Origin: Candidatus Bathyarchaeia archaeon
GTDB taxonomy: Archaea; Thermoproteota; CALKCG01; B24
Assembly: GCA_038870975.1 (NCBI GenBank)
Contig: JAVZJD010000001.1
Location: forward strand, 32,001 to 96,000
Reading direction: 5' to 3'
Length of the DNA stretch: 64,000 bases
Part shown: positions 30,223 through 61,913 of the stretch, piece by piece
Numbering within the stretch: the first letter of the stretch is position 1
Layout: each line of letters begins with the position of its first letter
Notes under the pieces: model-generated
Database searches by the model: none
What the model was told of the DNA's origin: nothing
The model's input: the letters and a program-made list of their open reading frames with translations, nothing else
Position numbers and translations under genes: made by a program

Positions 30223-33180
30223 CTAACCCTTAACAACGGCTATTGGAACTAATCTAGCGACCTTCGTAGCTATACCCACTCTATGGCTTACTTCAGCAAC
30301 CAAGTCACATGGTTTGTATGCCCCAGAGGCTTCTTCGCTTAAAACGCTTAAACTTGCCGCTTCAACTACTATGCCTTGACGTTCCATTTCACGTTTAATC
30401 GCTTCTCCTCTCCAACGTTCTTTAGCTTTAGCTCTGGATAGTAGTCTTCCAGCTCCGTGGGCTGTAGAGCCGAATGTAAGCTCCATTGATTTAGGCGTCC
30501 CTACTAAAACCCAGCTTGAGTCTGCCATAGAGCCGGGTAGTAGCACTGGTTGACCTACGTTTCTATACTTGGCTGGAATTTCAGGTCTACCAGCTGGGAA
30601 AGCCCGAGTTGCACCCTTCCTATGTACGTAGACTTTTCTCTTGGTTCCCTTACTGTCCACTAAATGTTCTTCAAGCTTAGCTATGTTGTGTGCTACATCG
30701 TAAATTAAATGCATATCTAAATCCTCTGGGCTTCTCTTGAAAACGCTACTGAAGCTTTCTCTAACCCAGTGCATGATAGCTTGTCTATTAGCAAATGCAT
30801 AGTTTATGCCACATTTCATGGCTTTCACGTAGTCTTCACCTTCTCGGCTTGACGCTGGTACACAAGCTAGCTCTCTGTCTGGAACTCGAATCCCATATTT
30901 ATGCATGGCTCTCTCCATAACTCTAAGGTAGTCTGAACATATCTGATGACCGAACCCTCTAGAACCAGTGTGGATAAGTACCATTATCTGCCCCTCCTGT
31001 TCAATACCGAATACCTTCGCAACCTTAGGGTCCTCTATCCGATCTACGACGTCTATCTCCAAGAAGTGGTTACCAGACCCTAGAGTACCTATCTGAGGCT
31101 CTCCACGACTCCTAGCGGTGTTTGAGACTTTACTCGGGTCAGCACCCTCTATACTACCTCTCTCTTCACAGTACTCTAAATCTTCATCCCAGCCTAAACC
31201 GTGTTTAACAACCCATCCAGCACCTTCAACCATAAGCTCATCCAAATCTCTACTCGTAACCCTCAGGTCCTTCCTACGGCTTCCGAGACCACTTGGAACA
31301 TTCCTGAAAAGCGAAACGGTAAGCTGTTTTAAAACGGGCTTAACATCCTTCACCGTAAGATTTGTTTTAACGAGTCTCACTCCACAGTTATGAACAACTA
31401 TGCCGTTAGCTATGAAATTGTGCGCATCATGGTAAACTCCTATATCGTAGAACCTTGTGTAGCTAGGCTTGATGTATTCAACTCTTACAACTTTGTCGGA
31501 GACAAAACCGCCTTTATGGTAGAATTTTGATGCGAATTCTTCGAATGTTGGAAAGTCTTGGGCTATTCTGACGCCAGATGATGTCCCATATATGTTTCTT
31601 TCGACAAGTCTTCTGTTTATATGTTTCCCGGCAACTGCTTCATATGTTTTACTAATGCTTTCTGTACTCGCGTAGACTTCCATTGCCTTTTCAACCGCCT
31701 CCTCACGCATCTTTTTAACTGCATACTTCCTCTTCAGATATTCGTAAGCGATGGACGCCTGAGTCCTCTTCTTAGGTGAGTATTCGTAGCTAATGTAACC
31801 GAGGAAGTTTCTTATAGAGTCCTCATCTACTATTGAAAGCCTATATGTTATACGCCCTTCGAGAGATTTAACCTTGTAGATTATGCTTTTAACGTTAAAT
31901 TCGCGAAGAATTTTTGAAACTTCTTCGAGGAACAGTGTTAGATTGTCTTCGAGTTCTTTCTTCTTAGACTGAGTGAAATTTATCGGTAGTGGTGTATAAC
32001 CATTGAAGCAGACAATACTTCCATCCGCTCCAAAGAGTCCGGCTAAAAAGTTTCTCTTAATCCAGGATTGAGCATTCTTAATCCACTCGGGGATACGGTA
32101 AGCTTGCTTCGTCTTCTTTCCAATAGGCATTCCAAGCTTATGCATAAGGATTGAGAAGGCTCTAGACGTAACCTTAACCATAGAATCTGTACAGTGACTC
32201 TCATACAAGCTATTCCACGCAGTTTTTATACGAACCCTTCTTTTCCTCATATATATCTTCGACGGTTTAACTCCAAGTTTTTTGAGGTCTTTTATGATCT
32301 CCTTAAGTTCCTCGGCTTCTCCGTGGAAGCTTAAAACTAGTCTCTTTCCTCTTGCTAAGTGTAGAGAACCATCCCCCAAGGCATATCCAAAGAGTCTAGC
32401 GAGTAAACCAACTTTAGGATCGCTAAGTCGCAATGGAATAAGACCCCTCTTTTTAAGATAGGTAAGTATCTGGTGATCGCATTCTCTAAAATCTCCATCA
32501 TCTAGTAGTACATGATCATCTACGCTATATTCTACACCTTCAAAGGGATATACAATAACATGGTCGCCTTCTTTAATCTCCTCCAAGTTTTTATAGCCTT
32601 CAGGTGTAAGGATCGGGTGGTCTCTACTTCCTTCAATCACCCGGCCACCTTCAGTTACTATCTGGATTGCAAATTCTCCAGGTTCAACGCTTCTCTCAGC
32701 GACAAAAGCGATATTAGAGGAGTCGTTATGCCCCTCTTCTACATCATAGACTTTAAGACTTTGATTGCAGATTTTTTTCGAAATTTCCTCTATTCTCAAC
32801 CAGTATCCGTACTCAGTCAAAACTACTGAATTGGGAGCAAGACAATTGATATCGTAGCCGACTCCGCCTGGGCTTACGACTCCCGTCTCAGCGTCGAAGG
32901 CGCCAACTCCTCCTATTGGGAAGCCGTATCCTTCATGTCCGTCTGGTAGGGTGATGCTGTACTTGTAGATGCCTGGCATTGTTGCTACGTTTGCACATTG
33001 GATGAGTGTTCTATCAGAACGCATCTTCTCTAGAAGTTTTTCATCCGCAAGTACTAAACCTGGGACCGACATTTCTGGTTTGAAAGACTCTGGAATACGC
33101 CACATGTATTCGTTTATCCTCTGTAATGGAACACCATATGAAGTTTCACCAGAATATCCTTCTTCGCCCAATTGTAACAC
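30223..33180 (-). CDS. rtcB: tRNA-splicing ligase RtcB with intein
   Basis: PDGHEGYGFPIGG, GYDIN|CG, GSGNHF, HTGSRG, HRKGAT, HGAGR; probable start is TTG at 33171. Confidence 0.95.
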   Translation of the reverse strand: MLQLGEEGYSGETSYGVPLQRINEYMWRIPESFKPEMSVPGLVLADEKLLEKMRSDRTLIQCANVATMPGIYKYSITLPDGHEGYGFPIGGVGAFDAETGVVSPGGVGYDINCLAPNSVVLTEYGYWLRIEEISKKICNQSLKVYDVEEGHNDSSNIAFVAERSVEPGEFAIQIVTEGGRVIEGSRDHPILTPEGYKNLEEIKEGDHVIVYPFEGVEYSVDDHVLLDDGDFRECDHQILTYLKKRGLIPLRLSDPKVGLLARLFGYALGDGSLHLARGKRLVLSFHGEAEELKEIIKDLKKLGVKPSKIYMRKRRVRIKTAWNSLYESHCTDSMVKVTSRAFSILMHKLGMPIGKKTKQAYRIPEWIKNAQSWIKRNFLAGLFGADGSIVCFNGYTPLPINFTQSKKKELEDNLTLFLEEVSKILREFNVKSIIYKVKSLEGRITYRLSIVDEDSIRNFLGYISYEYSPKKRTQASIAYEYLKRKYAVKKMREEAVEKAMEVYASTESISKTYEAVAGKHINRRLVERNIYGTSSGVRIAQDFPTFEEFASKFYHKGGFVSDKVVRVEYIKPSYTRFYDIGVYHDAHNFIANGIVVHNCGVRLVKTNLTVKDVKPVLKQLTVSLFRNVPSGLGSRRKDLRVTSRDLDELMVEGAGWVVKHGLGWDEDLEYCEERGSIEGADPSKVSNTARSRGEPQIGTLGSGNHFLEIDVVDRIEDPKVAKVFGIEQEGQIMVLIHTGSRGFGHQICSDYLRVMERAMHKYGIRVPDRELACVPASSREGEDYVKAMKCGINYAFANRQAIMHWVRESFSSVFKRSPEDLDMHLIYDVAHNIAKLEEHLVDSKGTKRKVYVHRKGATRAFPAGRPEIPAKYRNVGQPVLLPGSMADSSWVLVGTPKSMELTFGSTAHGAGRLLSRAKAKERWRGEAIKREMERQGIVVEAASLSVLSEEASGAYKPCDLVAEVSHRVGIATKVARLVPIAVVKG
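31387..32844 (-). mobile_element. RtcB intein (486 aa) with LAGLIDADG homing endonuclease
   Basis: Starts CLAPNS, block B SRDH, LFGYALGDG and FLAGLFGADG, ends VVHN followed by +1 Cys. Confidence 0.92.
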
Positions 33181-57872: not shown

Positions 57873-58940
57873 TTAGAAGCCTAGTGAATGGGATAAATCT
57901 AAAGAGTAAAGCGTCTGCTCATAGTATTTGGGACCATATGTTAAAGTTATCTGGTAGAACAACTCTTTTAGAGACTCTACTCTCTCAAGCCATCCTTCAA
58001 CGTAAACCCTCTCGCCTTTAAAAGCCTGAAGTCTATATTCCTCCACATACGATACTATACGTTTTATGCCGTCTACTCTAAAGCCTTCCACTACGTCTTC
58101 AACTTCAACATCGTATACAGACGGCATGAAAGCCGCCTCATCGTCTCCGAGTATGGTTGCATAGGCTTTTAACCAGCCGAGTCTAACGATACTTCTTAGA
58201 GAACTATACTCGTTCGCGATTTCACCATAATCTTTAACAGGCTCAAACTCGACTTTGACAGGTCTAGCGTTTAACGGCTTATAAACGCCGTATATCAACT
58301 TCCTCTTTTGATGCGCTATGTATAGTTTGTAAGGGTAGTTTTTAAACTTCCATTTAAAACTTAAATCTTCAGATGGATGTTCAAACTCGTTGAATATAAA
58401 ACCCCCTTTGTAGAGGGCTGCCAGACAGTCTCTAAGCTCTTTCAAATTCTTCAGCCCATATATGACGAAATCTAAATCTGAAAAATTTGGATGGTAGAAT
58501 CCGAGGAGTAGGGAGCCGAAGACTCCAAAGTCCTCTAAATTCAACTTCGAAGAACACAGAATCATGTTGAGGACTTTCTCCAATGCTGTTAAAAGCTCAT
58601 CTTTCGAAGAATCTATCAGCCTAATTAAGGCATCCTTTGGAAGCCTAACCTCACCTATTCGGTTTTTAGGGACCCCTGGAAGGTATGCATTTAAAGGCCT
58701 ATAGTAGACTCTATACTCTGGAAAACGCTTATTTATGAGTTTAAACGGTTCATCTCCGTAGAGTTTGTAGTGGGATATTTTGCTACGTCCTCTTGGAGCC
58801 CTGGGATTATTGGAACTGTAGAGATTTGAAGGCACATATTCAAGGTCGCACAAGTATCCGTCAGGTGGATGAGAATACCCCAACACTCTAAATATTAAGC
58901 CGTTTGAACTTATGATATAATCTCTATCTCTTAGGCTCAT
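57873..58940 (-). CDS. Pol-beta superfamily nucleotidyltransferase (COG1665-like), paralog 2
   Basis: RDRD, GYSHP, GVFGS...SDLDFVIYG, C-terminal OB-like GWLE; start MSLRD. Confidence 0.75.
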   Translation of the reverse strand: MSLRDRDYIISSNGLIFRVLGYSHPPDGYLCDLEYVPSNLYSSNNPRAPRGRSKISHYKLYGDEPFKLINKRFPEYRVYYRPLNAYLPGVPKNRIGEVRLPKDALIRLIDSSKDELLTALEKVLNMILCSSKLNLEDFGVFGSLLLGFYHPNFSDLDFVIYGLKNLKELRDCLAALYKGGFIFNEFEHPSEDLSFKWKFKNYPYKLYIAHQKRKLIYGVYKPLNARPVKVEFEPVKDYGEIANEYSSLRSIVRLGWLKAYATILGDDEAAFMPSVYDVEVEDVVEGFRVDGIKRIVSYVEEYRLQAFKGERVYVEGWLERVESLKELFYQITLTYGPKYYEQTLYSLDLSHSLGF

Positions 58941-58941
58941 T

Positions 58942-59964
58942 TTAGTACAACTTCCTAACTTGAATGTACTCGCCCGGTCTACCTGAGCCGACGACAACCC
59001 TATACTTTTCAATGTTGCTTGAAGTAGATATTTCCCTTTCCAATAGACCTCGAACTTCGAGTAAGTCTCCTTCGGATGCTAAACCCCTATACGTACCATC
59101 CATGACGACAATATCCTTCGGCCTCATTTCAGGAGGCAATCTAGACTCTTCATTAACAGCTCGATAATCTGAAACCCTGTAGATTGCTGGTCTGAAGAAG
59201 GATTCCTCAGCAGATTCAACCATGCATCTAAACCTTACAGTCTTTATAGGCATCCTACGGTATGCTCCATAAACGTCTTTTATTTCATCAGACTTTCTAA
59301 CAGCGTTGAAAACGACTTTGAAACCCTTGTAAGAGATTTTATTTTTACGGAGTCTATCGAACTCATTCTCATACATGTATTTCATAACGTCTTTAGATAC
59401 TAATCCACTCACGGTATTCCTCACTTTTCTAAAGTTTAATCCTCCGTAGATCGCTACGTCAACATCGGGTTTTTCAGACAGCATATCTAAACAGAGAGAG
59501 CCATGTATACCAAAATTCTTCAATTCAATGTCGGAATTGGAGGAAATCAATTCAATCCATTCAACGGCCACATCCTCCACTGGAAGACGATTCTTTTTGC
59601 GTATAAGTCTAAATAGAGCATCCCTAGGTTTGAAAACACACTCTATTTTATCTTTAGGAACAGATGTTAAGACTTTAGAGTTGTATGGACATTCGTAGAC
59701 GTAATGTGGGAAGTTTTCACTGAAAACCCTTAAGATCTCTTGAAGATTCTCAGGACTGTAAAGTTTAACTGGTCTCACATACATCTCACTCTCATGCTTC
59801 CAAACCCACGGTAAAAACTCCATCTTAAATAAACTTTTAAAACGCTCCGGCACATACTTTAAATAGGCAATATAGCGATCATCAGGATGCTCATAACCGA
59901 AGACGTAGAAAATAAAGCCATCCTGAGTTTTAATGATATCTCCATCGACGAGTTTTTCAGACAT
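58942..59964 (-). CDS. Pol-beta superfamily nucleotidyltransferase (COG1665-like), paralog 1
   Basis: GYEHP, YLKY, GIHGS...[13 protein letters not shown]. Confidence 0.75.
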
Positions 59965-60082: not shown

Positions 60083-60349
60083 ATGGTATACGAATCGCAG
60101 GCGTATTTAACATTAATACGTAATGTAGATAGAGGACTTAGAACTAGAACTTTGATAATAAAAGCTCTCAAAAGTGGATGTACGAGTATTGGAGAAGTTT
60201 CAAAAACCACAGGGTTAAAGTACCAGACCATCTTGAAACATATTAAGAAGATGGAGGAAGAAGGTATTGTTGTTAAACGCGGAGAGAAACCTGTAAAATG
60301 GCTTCTGACGGATAGAGGACAGAGAAGTATTTTAATCTACGGAACTTAA
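60083..60349 (+). CDS. ArsR-like winged-helix protein
   Basis: IGEVSKTTGLKYQTILKHIKKMEEEGIV...WLLTDRG. Confidence 0.75.
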   Translation: MVYESQAYLTLIRNVDRGLRTRTLIIKALKSGCTSIGEVSKTTGLKYQTILKHIKKMEEEGIVVKRGEKPVKWLLTDRGQRSILIYGT

Positions 60350-60362
60350 GGAGAATTTGTTT

Positions 60363-60631
60363 GTCAGGTAGCGGGGAGAGGCCGCTCCTCCCACCTCCTA
60401 TAACCAACCCGAAGGCTGGTTATAGGCGTCATTTCTGCAGGTTTAAGCTAACCTTTCGGTTAGCCCGTTTCCAAGCCTTTCGACTTGGAAACACCCTGCA
60501 CGACCTATCTACTCAGTCTCACTCATTGGAATCTGTTACGCAACCTTGAGCCGTCCCGAAGGACGGTCAGGGGAGCGTAACAAACTCCGTTGAGCAAGAC
60601 TTTTCGATTTTAGACGACGCTACCTTTTGAC
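60363..60631 (-). ncRNA. Unassigned large structured non-coding RNA (~270 nt)
   Basis: Terminal helix 60366-60373/60618-60625; four hairpins capped by cUUCGg (x2) and GAAA (x2) on the minus strand; G-U pairs valid only on the minus strand; GC-rich island with an AT-rich upstream flank. Confidence 0.8.
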
Positions 60632-60653
60632 CAAGCTTAGGGTCTTCTAATTA

Positions 60654-60672
60654 TTCTTTTAAGATTAACTGA
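60654..60672 (-). promoter_or_regulatory. Candidate TATA box for the ncRNA
   Basis: GTTAATCTTAAAAG on the minus strand ~25-30 nt upstream of the predicted 5' end. Confidence 0.4.
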
Positions 60673-60809: not shown

Positions 60810-61913
60810 TTATGTTTTAAAGAACCGGCTTTGAAGCCTCTTCAGTGTTTCAACGATGCCTGTATATTCCAGTTCTTCCATGCCGAGTATTGCAGGAGCT
60901 ATCGGTCCATTTCTCCTTATGAATTCAGCCATCTGGAGAGCTGTTCTTCTAGCGTGGTCGAAAGCCACGTCTTCAAATAAATCAGCAGGTCCTACGAGTC
61001 TGCCGCCTGAAAGCTGGAAGCCTAAAGCTACTACTCTAGGCGGTCCGTCGAAGAACGAGCACCTACTGTCCTTTAAGCCTACTGGCATCAGAGGACCGTA
61101 GTGGGAACCCCTCATCCAGCCAGCTACCATGTGCGGTGTGAAGAATGGTGCTAAAGCTTCACCTACTGCTGGAAGCCCATGCTGACATCTCACGATGCAA
61201 ACCGGGTCGTCTTTACCTACGTATCTGCCAGCTATTAGAGAAAGCCTTGTAACACTGGCGACAGCGGCTATAAGCTTGTCGGAATTTCTCCAGACCCTTT
61301 CAATCACATATCTGCCCGTTGTACCAATGAGCGCCAGTAGACTGTAGATTTCACTTGGAGTAGATAGGTCTATACATTCACCTTTCTGAACATCCATAAC
61401 TCTAAATGTGAACCCGTCGTGCATGACAGGGTCTAGTATTAAGCCTGCCGTATTCCAAGGATCTGCGAAAATCTTGTAGAGTATTAGGTTCCAAGCACCT
61501 GGCTCAGTCTTATCAGCGGCAAAAACAACTATCGGCTCACTTCTACGTTCCTCTATCTCCATTTCAGCTACTCCAGGCCCCATGCCTTTGACGTTTCCAG
61601 AAAATGCTTCTGAAAGCAGGTCTTGACCAGCTGCGTAAAGCTTGAGAGGCCTTGAAACCTTTTCAGTAACTTCTTTAAAAGTATCCCATGCTAAACCATG
61701 TATCTTGGGACTATTCTCCCCCTCTCTATGGGTCATTAGAAGTTCAAGGTCGTCTCCAGCGTTGAAGACGTAGTAGTCGATCAGTAGACCTTTTTCTTTA
61801 GCTTCCTGGAGCTTCTTCTTAGCAAGTTCTATTTGCTCTGAGTGGACAATGTGGTGGCCAGCTAAAGAACCAACGTCTGCTTTTATCAGGGATATAGTTA
61901 TTTTGTCGGGCAT
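60810..61913 (-). CDS. fbp: Fructose-1,6-bisphosphate aldolase/phosphatase (class V)
   Basis: IKADVG, GDD, GQDLL, DKTEPGA, YVGKDDP, GWMRGSH. Confidence 0.95.
   Translation of the reverse strand: MPDKITISLIKADVGSLAGHHIVHSEQIELAKKKLQEAKEKGLLIDYYVFNAGDDLELLMTHREGENSPKIHGLAWDTFKEVTEKVSRPLKLYAAGQDLLSEAFSGNVKGMGPGVAEMEIEERRSEPIVVFAADKTEPGAWNLILYKIFADPWNTAGLILDPVMHDGFTFRVMDVQKGECIDLSTPSEIYSLLALIGTTGRYVIERVWRNSDKLIAAVASVTRLSLIAGRYVGKDDPVCIVRCQHGLPAVGEALAPFFTPHMVAGWMRGSHYGPLMPVGLKDSRCSFFDGPPRVVALGFQLSGGRLVGPADLFEDVAFDHARRTALQMAEFIRRNGPIAPAILGMEELEYTGIVETLKRLQSRFFKT

Follow-up and report, generated by a model that had tools for sequence, protein, structure and literature searches.

What is the highly structured segment of approximately 270 nt that lies between the fbp gene and a small winged-helix gene (wHTH) in a Candidatus Bathyarchaeia archaeon of the GTDB order B24? 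This order corresponds to the Bifangarchaeales, a geothermal lineage (PMC10321748), and fbp has its closest named relatives in Ca. Bathyarchaeota QZM_A2_bin_24, B24, SKYB62 and JZ_bin_32. The segment is part of a window of 64,000 nucleotides (contig JAVZJD010000001.1, positions 32,001–96,000), to which coordinates refer unless otherwise indicated. An original prediction, made from sequence alone, had assigned minus-strand positions 60631–60363 to an independently transcribed, stable RNA of a class that could not be named, and had excluded SRP RNA, RNase P RNA, tRNA and rRNA. Both of these statements held: minus-strand transcription is very strong, there is a dedicated TATA box, covarying single-copy homologs were found, no Rfam family matches significantly, and Rfam, ARAGORN and motif tests support the exclusions. 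A match to a known Rfam family, a lack of both minus-strand transcription and covarying homologs, or dispersed copies as expected of a MITE would each have counted against the prediction, and none of the three was observed. The span did not hold as the mature RNA, which is a 265-nt circle (60625–60361), and the prediction had missed the circularity that arises from bulge-helix-bulge (BHB) processing, a pseudoknot, and a short helix (P2) enclosing the long arm and the three-way junction.

We conclude that the locus is very probably a free-standing gene whose product is a stable, circular non-coding RNA, and that this real, expressed and structured RNA in all likelihood represents a family not previously described. 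Its maturation route is of a kind already known and it is the class of RNA that is new. The best explanation taken as a whole – a circular non-coding RNA, matured by EndA and RtcB and acting as a scaffold – could as easily prove wrong as right. The features of the locus are collected in Table 1.

Table 1. Features of the RNA gene and of associated genes, with positions in the 64,000-nucleotide window.
Feature	Position	Strand	Remarks
TATA box	60657-60663	minus	TTAAA core; inferred promoter of the RNA
BHB, 5' half	60625-60634	minus	outer helix UUG 60634-60632, central helix GUCA 60631-60628, bulge AAA 60627-60625
BHB, 3' half	60357-60366	minus	central helix UGAC 60366-60363, bulge AAA 60362-60360, outer helix CAA 60359-60357
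Mature circular RNA, 265 nt	60361-60625	minus	BHB cut prediction and junction reads
P1, 7-bp closing helix	60624-60618 with 60373-60367	minus	two-sided changes at three positions, 15 homologs
P2, 3-4 bp	60615-60613 with 60430-60428	minus	encloses arm and three-way junction; likely register
J2/3, nearly invariant 11-nt single strand	60601-60611	minus	consensus ANARUCGAAAN
P3, long interrupted arm	60515-60600	minus	86 nt in the host; 86-188 nt across homologs
J3/4, invariant single strand RAGUAGAU	60507-60514	minus	runs into the pseudoknot
P4, 6-bp long-range pseudoknot	60506-60501 with 60384-60379	minus	90/90 cells paired, 15 homologs
P5, three-way junction	60436-60500	minus	two capped hairpins, 60492-60467 and 60464-60447
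13-bp UUCG hairpin	60397-60426	minus	amplified to a 28-nt tandem array in family 3
Terminal GGGAG/CUCCC stem	60392-60388 with 60378-60374	minus	with 3-nt linker; pseudoknot strand in loop
wHTH gene	60083-60349	plus	88-aa winged-helix protein; convergent with the RNA and outside it; Pfam HTH_24 and HTH_5
fbp (FBPase_3)	60810-61913	minus	upstream neighbour on the same strand; Pfam; expressed separately
RtcB RNA ligase gene	30223-33180	minus	985 aa; likely ligase for the circle

Transcription and circularization

The RNA is transcribed from the minus strand and accumulates as a 265-nt ring. Raw stranded reads from a hot-spring metatranscriptome (run X8) contain a 265-nt back-joint supported by 2,666 reads from 125 starts, in which 60624 is joined to 60360 with a three-letter ambiguity that includes the predicted joint of 60625 to 60361. 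Contigs from two runs of a second study (X1 and X2) are circular at the same 265-nt joint, so that three runs from two studies agree. Coverage of the RNA interval in X8 is 4,100–4,600x (about 4,500x) on the sense strand and 4–17x on the antisense strand (4,574 and 4.5 by strand), antisense reads amounting to approximately 0.1–0.4% of sense, and read ends do not pile up at any site across the interval. In the same run fbp is covered at 0.7–7x in the same mate orientation as the RNA, and wHTH has no reads. The level of the RNA exceeds that of fbp mRNA several hundredfold, a ratio that is only rough because some of the fbp reads came from other organisms, and it is possible that this abundance simply reflects the stability of the circle. 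The evidence consists of RNA reads only, and the joint was not compared with DNA runs; a further run, X6, has zero reads on the window and gives no information on the RNA. We note that 4–9% of X8 reads have changes at 60411, 60440, 60550, 60558 and 60416, for which there is no matching DNA run. On the RNA strand they read as C-to-U, with two falling on the C of UUCG loops, apart from a single G-to-A that replaces a G-U pair by A-U; either strain variation or deamination in a long-lived RNA could account for them.

The TATA-like box anticipated upstream of the RNA is present, as TTAAAA at 60662–60657. In full-length homologs of families 1–3 (see below) TTAAA is located 27–33 nt upstream of the BHB; the row for genome G007 was scored on a nearer second TTAAA, and alignment shows its TATA box to be in register. 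The box is also kept in family 4, and in genomes G014 and G011 despite their other neighbours. That the RNA uses this promoter of its own is inferred, and is very likely; the spacing of the box suggests a start site a few bases before the BHB.

The short leader and trailer are predicted to fold with the RNA body into a BHB, which is seen in the sequence and covaries. Its form is canonical, with a 4-bp central helix and two 3-nt bulges between the outer and inner helices, and the predicted cuts fall after the second base of each bulge (60626/60625 and 60361/60360). The outer helix covaries among homologs (UA, GC and CG pairs) though it is discarded on processing, and the central helix is mismatched in three imperfect family 2 copies (G008, G014 and L111). 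Among 396 strict BHB pairs in the genome, that of the RNA encloses the most stable segment per base. In the proposed pathway the tRNA splicing endonuclease would cut both bulges and RtcB would join the ends to yield the 265-nt ring, and three criteria for a BHB circle are fulfilled: a canonical BHB, a junction at the second base of each bulge, and both EndA and RtcB encoded. Two EndA-family genes are present (G000 C1:251571-251813 and C1:270239-270493), which is consistent with a two-subunit splicing endonuclease. The EndA/RtcB route is an inference from the presence of both genes and from the agreement of the observed junction with the predicted cuts; we consider it very likely, although there are no assay data for cleavage or ligation by the host enzymes. 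The SRP RNA of Thermoproteus, which is BHB-cut by EndA and circular, provides a precedent (PMC4731332). The rtcB gene is itself interrupted by an intein with a LAGLIDADG domain.

Secondary structure and conservation

The minus strand of a 291-nt region folds with a predicted energy of -146.4 kcal/mol (z = -9.75 relative to dinucleotide shuffles, with none of 200 shuffles as stable), and the plus strand of the same region, at -125.2 kcal/mol (z = -8.4), is 21 kcal/mol weaker. Searches of the locus against Rfam at E values up to 10 give no credible match, a single overlapping match at E = 9.6 being noise, and searches of seven homolog loci at E values up to 5 give only chance matches to microRNAs or cis-elements. 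Neither ARAGORN nor Rfam identifies a tRNA, tmRNA or rRNA fragment in the RNA. The genome contains a single copy of it, and nothing else in the genome, including the TnpB loci, resembles it; rolling-circle reading of the circle yields only short ORFs, none of them conserved, and no description of the RNA was found in the literature searched.

In 15 full-length homologs the elements follow one order: P1, P2, an 11-nt strand (J2/3), the arm (P3), RAGUAGAU (J3/4), a 6-nt pseudoknot strand, P5 with its two or three hairpins, a 4-nt linker, P2', a hairpin, the GGGAG stem holding the other pseudoknot strand in its loop, and P1'. Once the ends are ligated P1 is capped by a 7-nt junction loop. All five of the helices originally predicted are present. 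The closing helix, proposed as 60625–60618 with 60373–60366, held in part, as its terminal pair A60625-U60366 belongs to the BHB. The interrupted arm of approximately 87 nt with a UUCG cap (60601–60515; 86–87 nt), the three-way junction (stem 60500–60495 with 60441–60436) with its 11-bp and 7-bp GAAA hairpins, the 13-bp UUCG hairpin, and two G-U pairs (60407/60416 and 60476/60483) are all confirmed. So is the GGGAG/CUCCC hairpin, but its loop is not free, pairing instead with 60506–60501 as the P4 pseudoknot. The sequences of the extra-stable tetraloops that had been singled out are not conserved, and GAAA, GCAA, GUAA and UUCG interchange among homologs.

Covariation shows a conserved secondary structure of nested multiloops locked by the long-range pseudoknot. 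In the 3' half, an alignment fitted to the model shows two-sided changes at 24 of 42 pairs, a count that none of 500 shuffles reaches; in an unfitted MAFFT alignment of family 1 the count is 16 of 94 pairs, again with 0 of 500 shuffles. The pseudoknot exchanges GC with AU at its third pair, UG, UA and CG at its fourth, and CG with UA at its fifth, and two-sided changes are seen at four of the six P5 pairs and at nine of the 11 pairs of the first P5 hairpin. The GGGAG/CUCCC stem is invariant but for one G-C to G-U change, so that its pairing is consistent, though unproven by covariation. The first three pairs of P2 can form in all 15 homologs and the fourth is U-A, C-G or U-G in eight of them and U.U in the genus of the host; the register of P2 is inferred, and we regard it as likely. 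An alternative in which 60615–60611 pair with 60511–60507 is good in most sequences and was rejected, as it breaks in L111, L127 and G012, where P2 covaries.

The conserved core consists of the covarying pseudoknot and the two invariant single strands, and the arms vary freely. The exact J2/3 pattern occurs in 12 genomes of the class and is missing from 384 further genomes of the phylum. The pseudoknot strand is continuous with the terminal stem and a 3-nt linker spans the 6 bp, which is the geometry of an H-type pseudoknot. Some members of family 2 have three tandem copies of the P5 hairpin, and L104 contains a 27-nt triplication. Readings of the internal and junction loops as K-turns or anticodon loops do not fit, and a pairing between J2/3 and the T-loops of tRNAs was ruled out, since the loop differs in most tRNAs of the host.

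Distribution and genomic context

The class was sampled with 17 genomes that fall into four families, using BLAST and a covariance model (R1) of the 3' half of the RNA. Sequence searches find the RNA in 13 of the 17 B24 (Bifangarchaeales) genomes, with one copy in each: 8/8 in family 1, 3/3 in family 2, 2/2 in family 3 (with breaks at contig ends) and 0/4 in family 4. A pattern scan of metagenomes returned copies only of types already seen in the class genomes. Family 3 has a perfect 28-nt hairpin array of at least 5.8 copies (5.8 in L127, 1109–1271) that resembles a CRISPR-like or minisatellite repeat, and at which assemblies break (the end of L105 and the start of L107 in G012; L110 in G009).

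The four genomes of family 4 have an RNA of 309–310 nt at the fbp/wHTH site (L139, L140, L141 and L143), located behind a TTAAA box, closed by a BHB, and with the same helix order. It has near-perfect long duplex arms, such that 77–84% of it is paired; a near-perfect long duplex arm is found also in G010. The invariant strands and the P4-type pseudoknot are absent, none of the core nucleotides is kept, and R1 does not match it, but two invariant complementary loops, a C-run and a G-run, can form a kissing pseudoknot of 6–7 bp. We consider this RNA a likely positional homolog, an inference drawn from synteny, promoter, BHB ends and helix order and not from sequence, and for which there are no expression data. 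A palindromic hairpin stem in this family could also allow dimers. In an EF-2 tree family 4 is placed outside families 1–3 with weak support (81/74), and gain versus loss of the core is unresolved.

Beyond the class, R1 gives no credible match in 134 further genomes of the phylum (a weak match in G020 is coding), 151 genomes of the BA2 class, 150 genomes of the phylum containing Njordarchaeota, or 66 Hadarchaeota (one weak match is a tRNA), and no copy was found in viral, phage and plasmid sets. No comparable structure was seen downstream of 76 more distant fbp genes or near wHTH in four other lineages. Because R1 misses even family 4, these R1 blanks do not exclude distant relatives.

The RNA is placed between fbp and wHTH in families 1 and 4, and wHTH adjoins it in families 1, 3 and 4 and in genome G008. 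This position, which the original prediction had proposed as a check, is lost in G011 and G014, where the RNA is located elsewhere in the genome away from both genes, and the link to these neighbours is incidental. The wHTH gene of G005 (L006 / L135) contains an in-frame TGA. Divergent from wHTH are tandem uncharacterised nucleotidyltransferase-like genes (57873–59964, minus strand), a pair that is kept in families 1 and 4; one has a weak match to NTP_transf_2 and the other has no Pfam match.

Relationship to known RNAs

The SRP RNA of Thermoproteus tenax and T. uzoniensis, which is circular and permuted (Plagens et al. 2015; PMC4731332), has in common with this RNA a stand-alone gene with a TATA box, a BHB formed by leader and trailer, and a stable circular non-coding product of similar size. 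The RNA described here differs in having no helix-8 motif, and a normal SRP RNA is encoded elsewhere in the host genome (172.7 bits). Circles derived from tRNA introns and from pre-16S/23S rRNA (PMC12558985, PMC12918454) use the same BHB signal and presumably the same enzymes, whereas in this case there is no host RNA, the flanks are only a few bases long, and the circle is the conserved, pseudoknotted product. The circles recorded in surveys of circular RNAs in archaea are of the rRNA, tRNA, C/D, SRP, RNase P and IS-linked kinds, together with a few short circles of unknown function (PMC3326292, PMC12558985). The large bacterial orphan RNAs OLE, ROOL, GOLLD and raiA are, like this RNA, abundant, independently transcribed and intricately folded, with functions that are unclear; this RNA has no Rfam match to any of them, and unlike them it is archaeal, circular and restricted to one class.

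Proposed function and alternatives

We favour a non-catalytic structural RNA or RNP scaffold, although this is a guess inferred without functional data and is slightly more apt to fail than to succeed. It is preferred because all four families share a circular, heavily paired RNA with a long-range pseudoknot and changeable arms. In support, the arms range from 86 to 188 nt, hairpins are triplicated or amplified about sixfold with changing loop sequences, and in family 4 the circle, the order of the helices and a long-range pseudoknot persist although every core nucleotide is gone. The A-rich, invariant J3/4 would probably lie along the GGGAG/CUCCC stem and form minor-groove triples, giving an H-type pseudoknot triple helix, as inferred from geometry. 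The compact core would dock a specific partner, and the heat-stable duplex arms, variable in length and number, would resemble expansion segments. Against a scaffold, no binding partner has been identified, and the invariant single-stranded nucleotides of three families fit a catalytic or ligand site as well as they fit a protein site.

The main rival, which is possible though not likely, is a paralog derived from RNase P, an archaeal counterpart of RNase MRP, in which the topology of the catalytic domain was retained, the tRNA-specificity domain was lost and the substrate is another RNA. The helix order of the RNA was compared with that of the RNase P/MRP C-domain and with the host's own RNase P RNA: the succession of P1, P2, P3, pseudoknot strand, P5 with two hairpins, short purine linker, P2', hairpin, pseudoknot strand and P1' corresponds to it, as does the position of the long-range pseudoknot, in topology only (RF00373; PMC4919922, PMC7351766). 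There is RAG after P3, AG/CU closes the pseudoknot helix as in P4 of RNase P, and the canonical RNase P RNA that coexists with the circular RNA in families 1, 2 and 4 would free a duplicate. However, CR-I and CR-V (conserved regions as in PMC4919922), the bulged U of the pseudoknot helix and the specificity domain are all absent, the place of CR-V is taken by an extra terminal stem, P2 and P3 are set apart by a strand of 11 nt, and the molecule is a circle. No RNase P or MRP model matches at E values up to 5–10, only one Pop5 gene was found in the host, and family 4 lacks the core. We note that RF00373 is found in 11 of the 17 class genomes (0/2 in family 3 and 1/4 in family 4), and that the gaps in the other six are likely to come from incomplete assemblies (79–95%). 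A bolder and still conceivable reading is that the core is an active or docking site that came from a duplicated RNase P RNA, the whole being a circular, MRP-like ribozyme or RNP that acts on a substrate of its own; the RNA might, equally speculatively, belong to a wider class of host-less archaeal BHB circles.

It is unlikely that the RNA is a lineage-fixed selfish or storage RNA, such as a viroid- or retrozyme-like relic or a nucleotide reserve, selected for stability only. Its circularity, the 77–84% pairing of family 4, the runaway hairpin amplification of family 3 and the duplex arm of G010 would fit such an RNA. There is only one chromosomal copy per genome, however, with a conserved promoter and antisense reads under 0.5%; no ribozyme motif, conserved ORF, or viral, phage or plasmid copy was found, and the invariant unpaired nucleotides of three families imply purifying selection beyond stability.

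Less credible still is an RNA that binds or mimics tRNA through an interdigitated double T-loop platform built from J2/3 and J3/4, like that of RNase P, the L1 stalk and T-boxes. Two invariant purine-rich strands do flank a variable helix, as CR-II and CR-III do around P12, J3/4 contains AG..A and J2/3 contains CG..A. The module requires AG..A plus UG..A (PMC3664808), but the second loop here is invariantly CG..A, the final A of AG..A already belongs to the pseudoknot helix, as its first base, and both strands are absent in family 4.

Two further explanations are nearly excluded because the RNA has been relocated in G011 and G014 and is single copy. One is that the RNA acts on fbp or wHTH as a cis-regulator, a terminator or an antisense element, for which there is the position kept in families 1 and 4 and the adjacency of wHTH in family 3 and G008; against it, the RNA has its own promoter, its mature circle overlaps neither ORF, its level is several hundred times that of fbp mRNA, and it has moved away from both genes in those two genomes. 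The other is a MITE or an orphan IS200/IS605 omegaRNA. Circular omegaRNAs do occur in archaea (PMC12558985) and the host genome has TnpB-like genes, but the RNA is vertically conserved with no adjacent transposase and no empty-site alleles seen in close relatives, the circular omegaRNAs described lack a BHB (PMC12558985), and the Rfam omegaRNA, sotRNA and HEARO models do not match.

Several known classes were rejected: SRP RNA, permuted forms included (no helix-8 SRP54 motif, also across the junction, and no Rfam match); box C/D or H/ACA guide RNA (no C box and no ACA tail); an rRNA fragment (no missing piece, the 23S and 5S genes of the host being full-length); and a small self-cleaving ribozyme, group II intron or viroid-like replicon (hammerhead and domain-V patterns absent, and no Rfam match). 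The RNase P RNA, SRP RNA, 23S and 5S genes of the host are separate from the RNA locus and away from it, and the longest complementarity to 23S plus about 2 kb of flank is 10 nt, a chance-level value in a comparison that did not cover the whole of 16S.

Significance

The pseudoknot core of this circular RNA can be synthesised and is directly open to structure, binding and catalysis assays, for which the natural variants in arm length, hairpin arrays and swapped pseudoknot are ready controls. If its RNase P-like topology is a matter of ancestry, the RNA would bear on the origin of RNase MRP-type paralogs. Archaea are thought to run on few abundant stable RNAs – rRNA, tRNA, SRP RNA, RNase P RNA and guide RNAs – and to these is added a highly abundant stable RNA that is apparently present across an entire early-branching hot-spring lineage.
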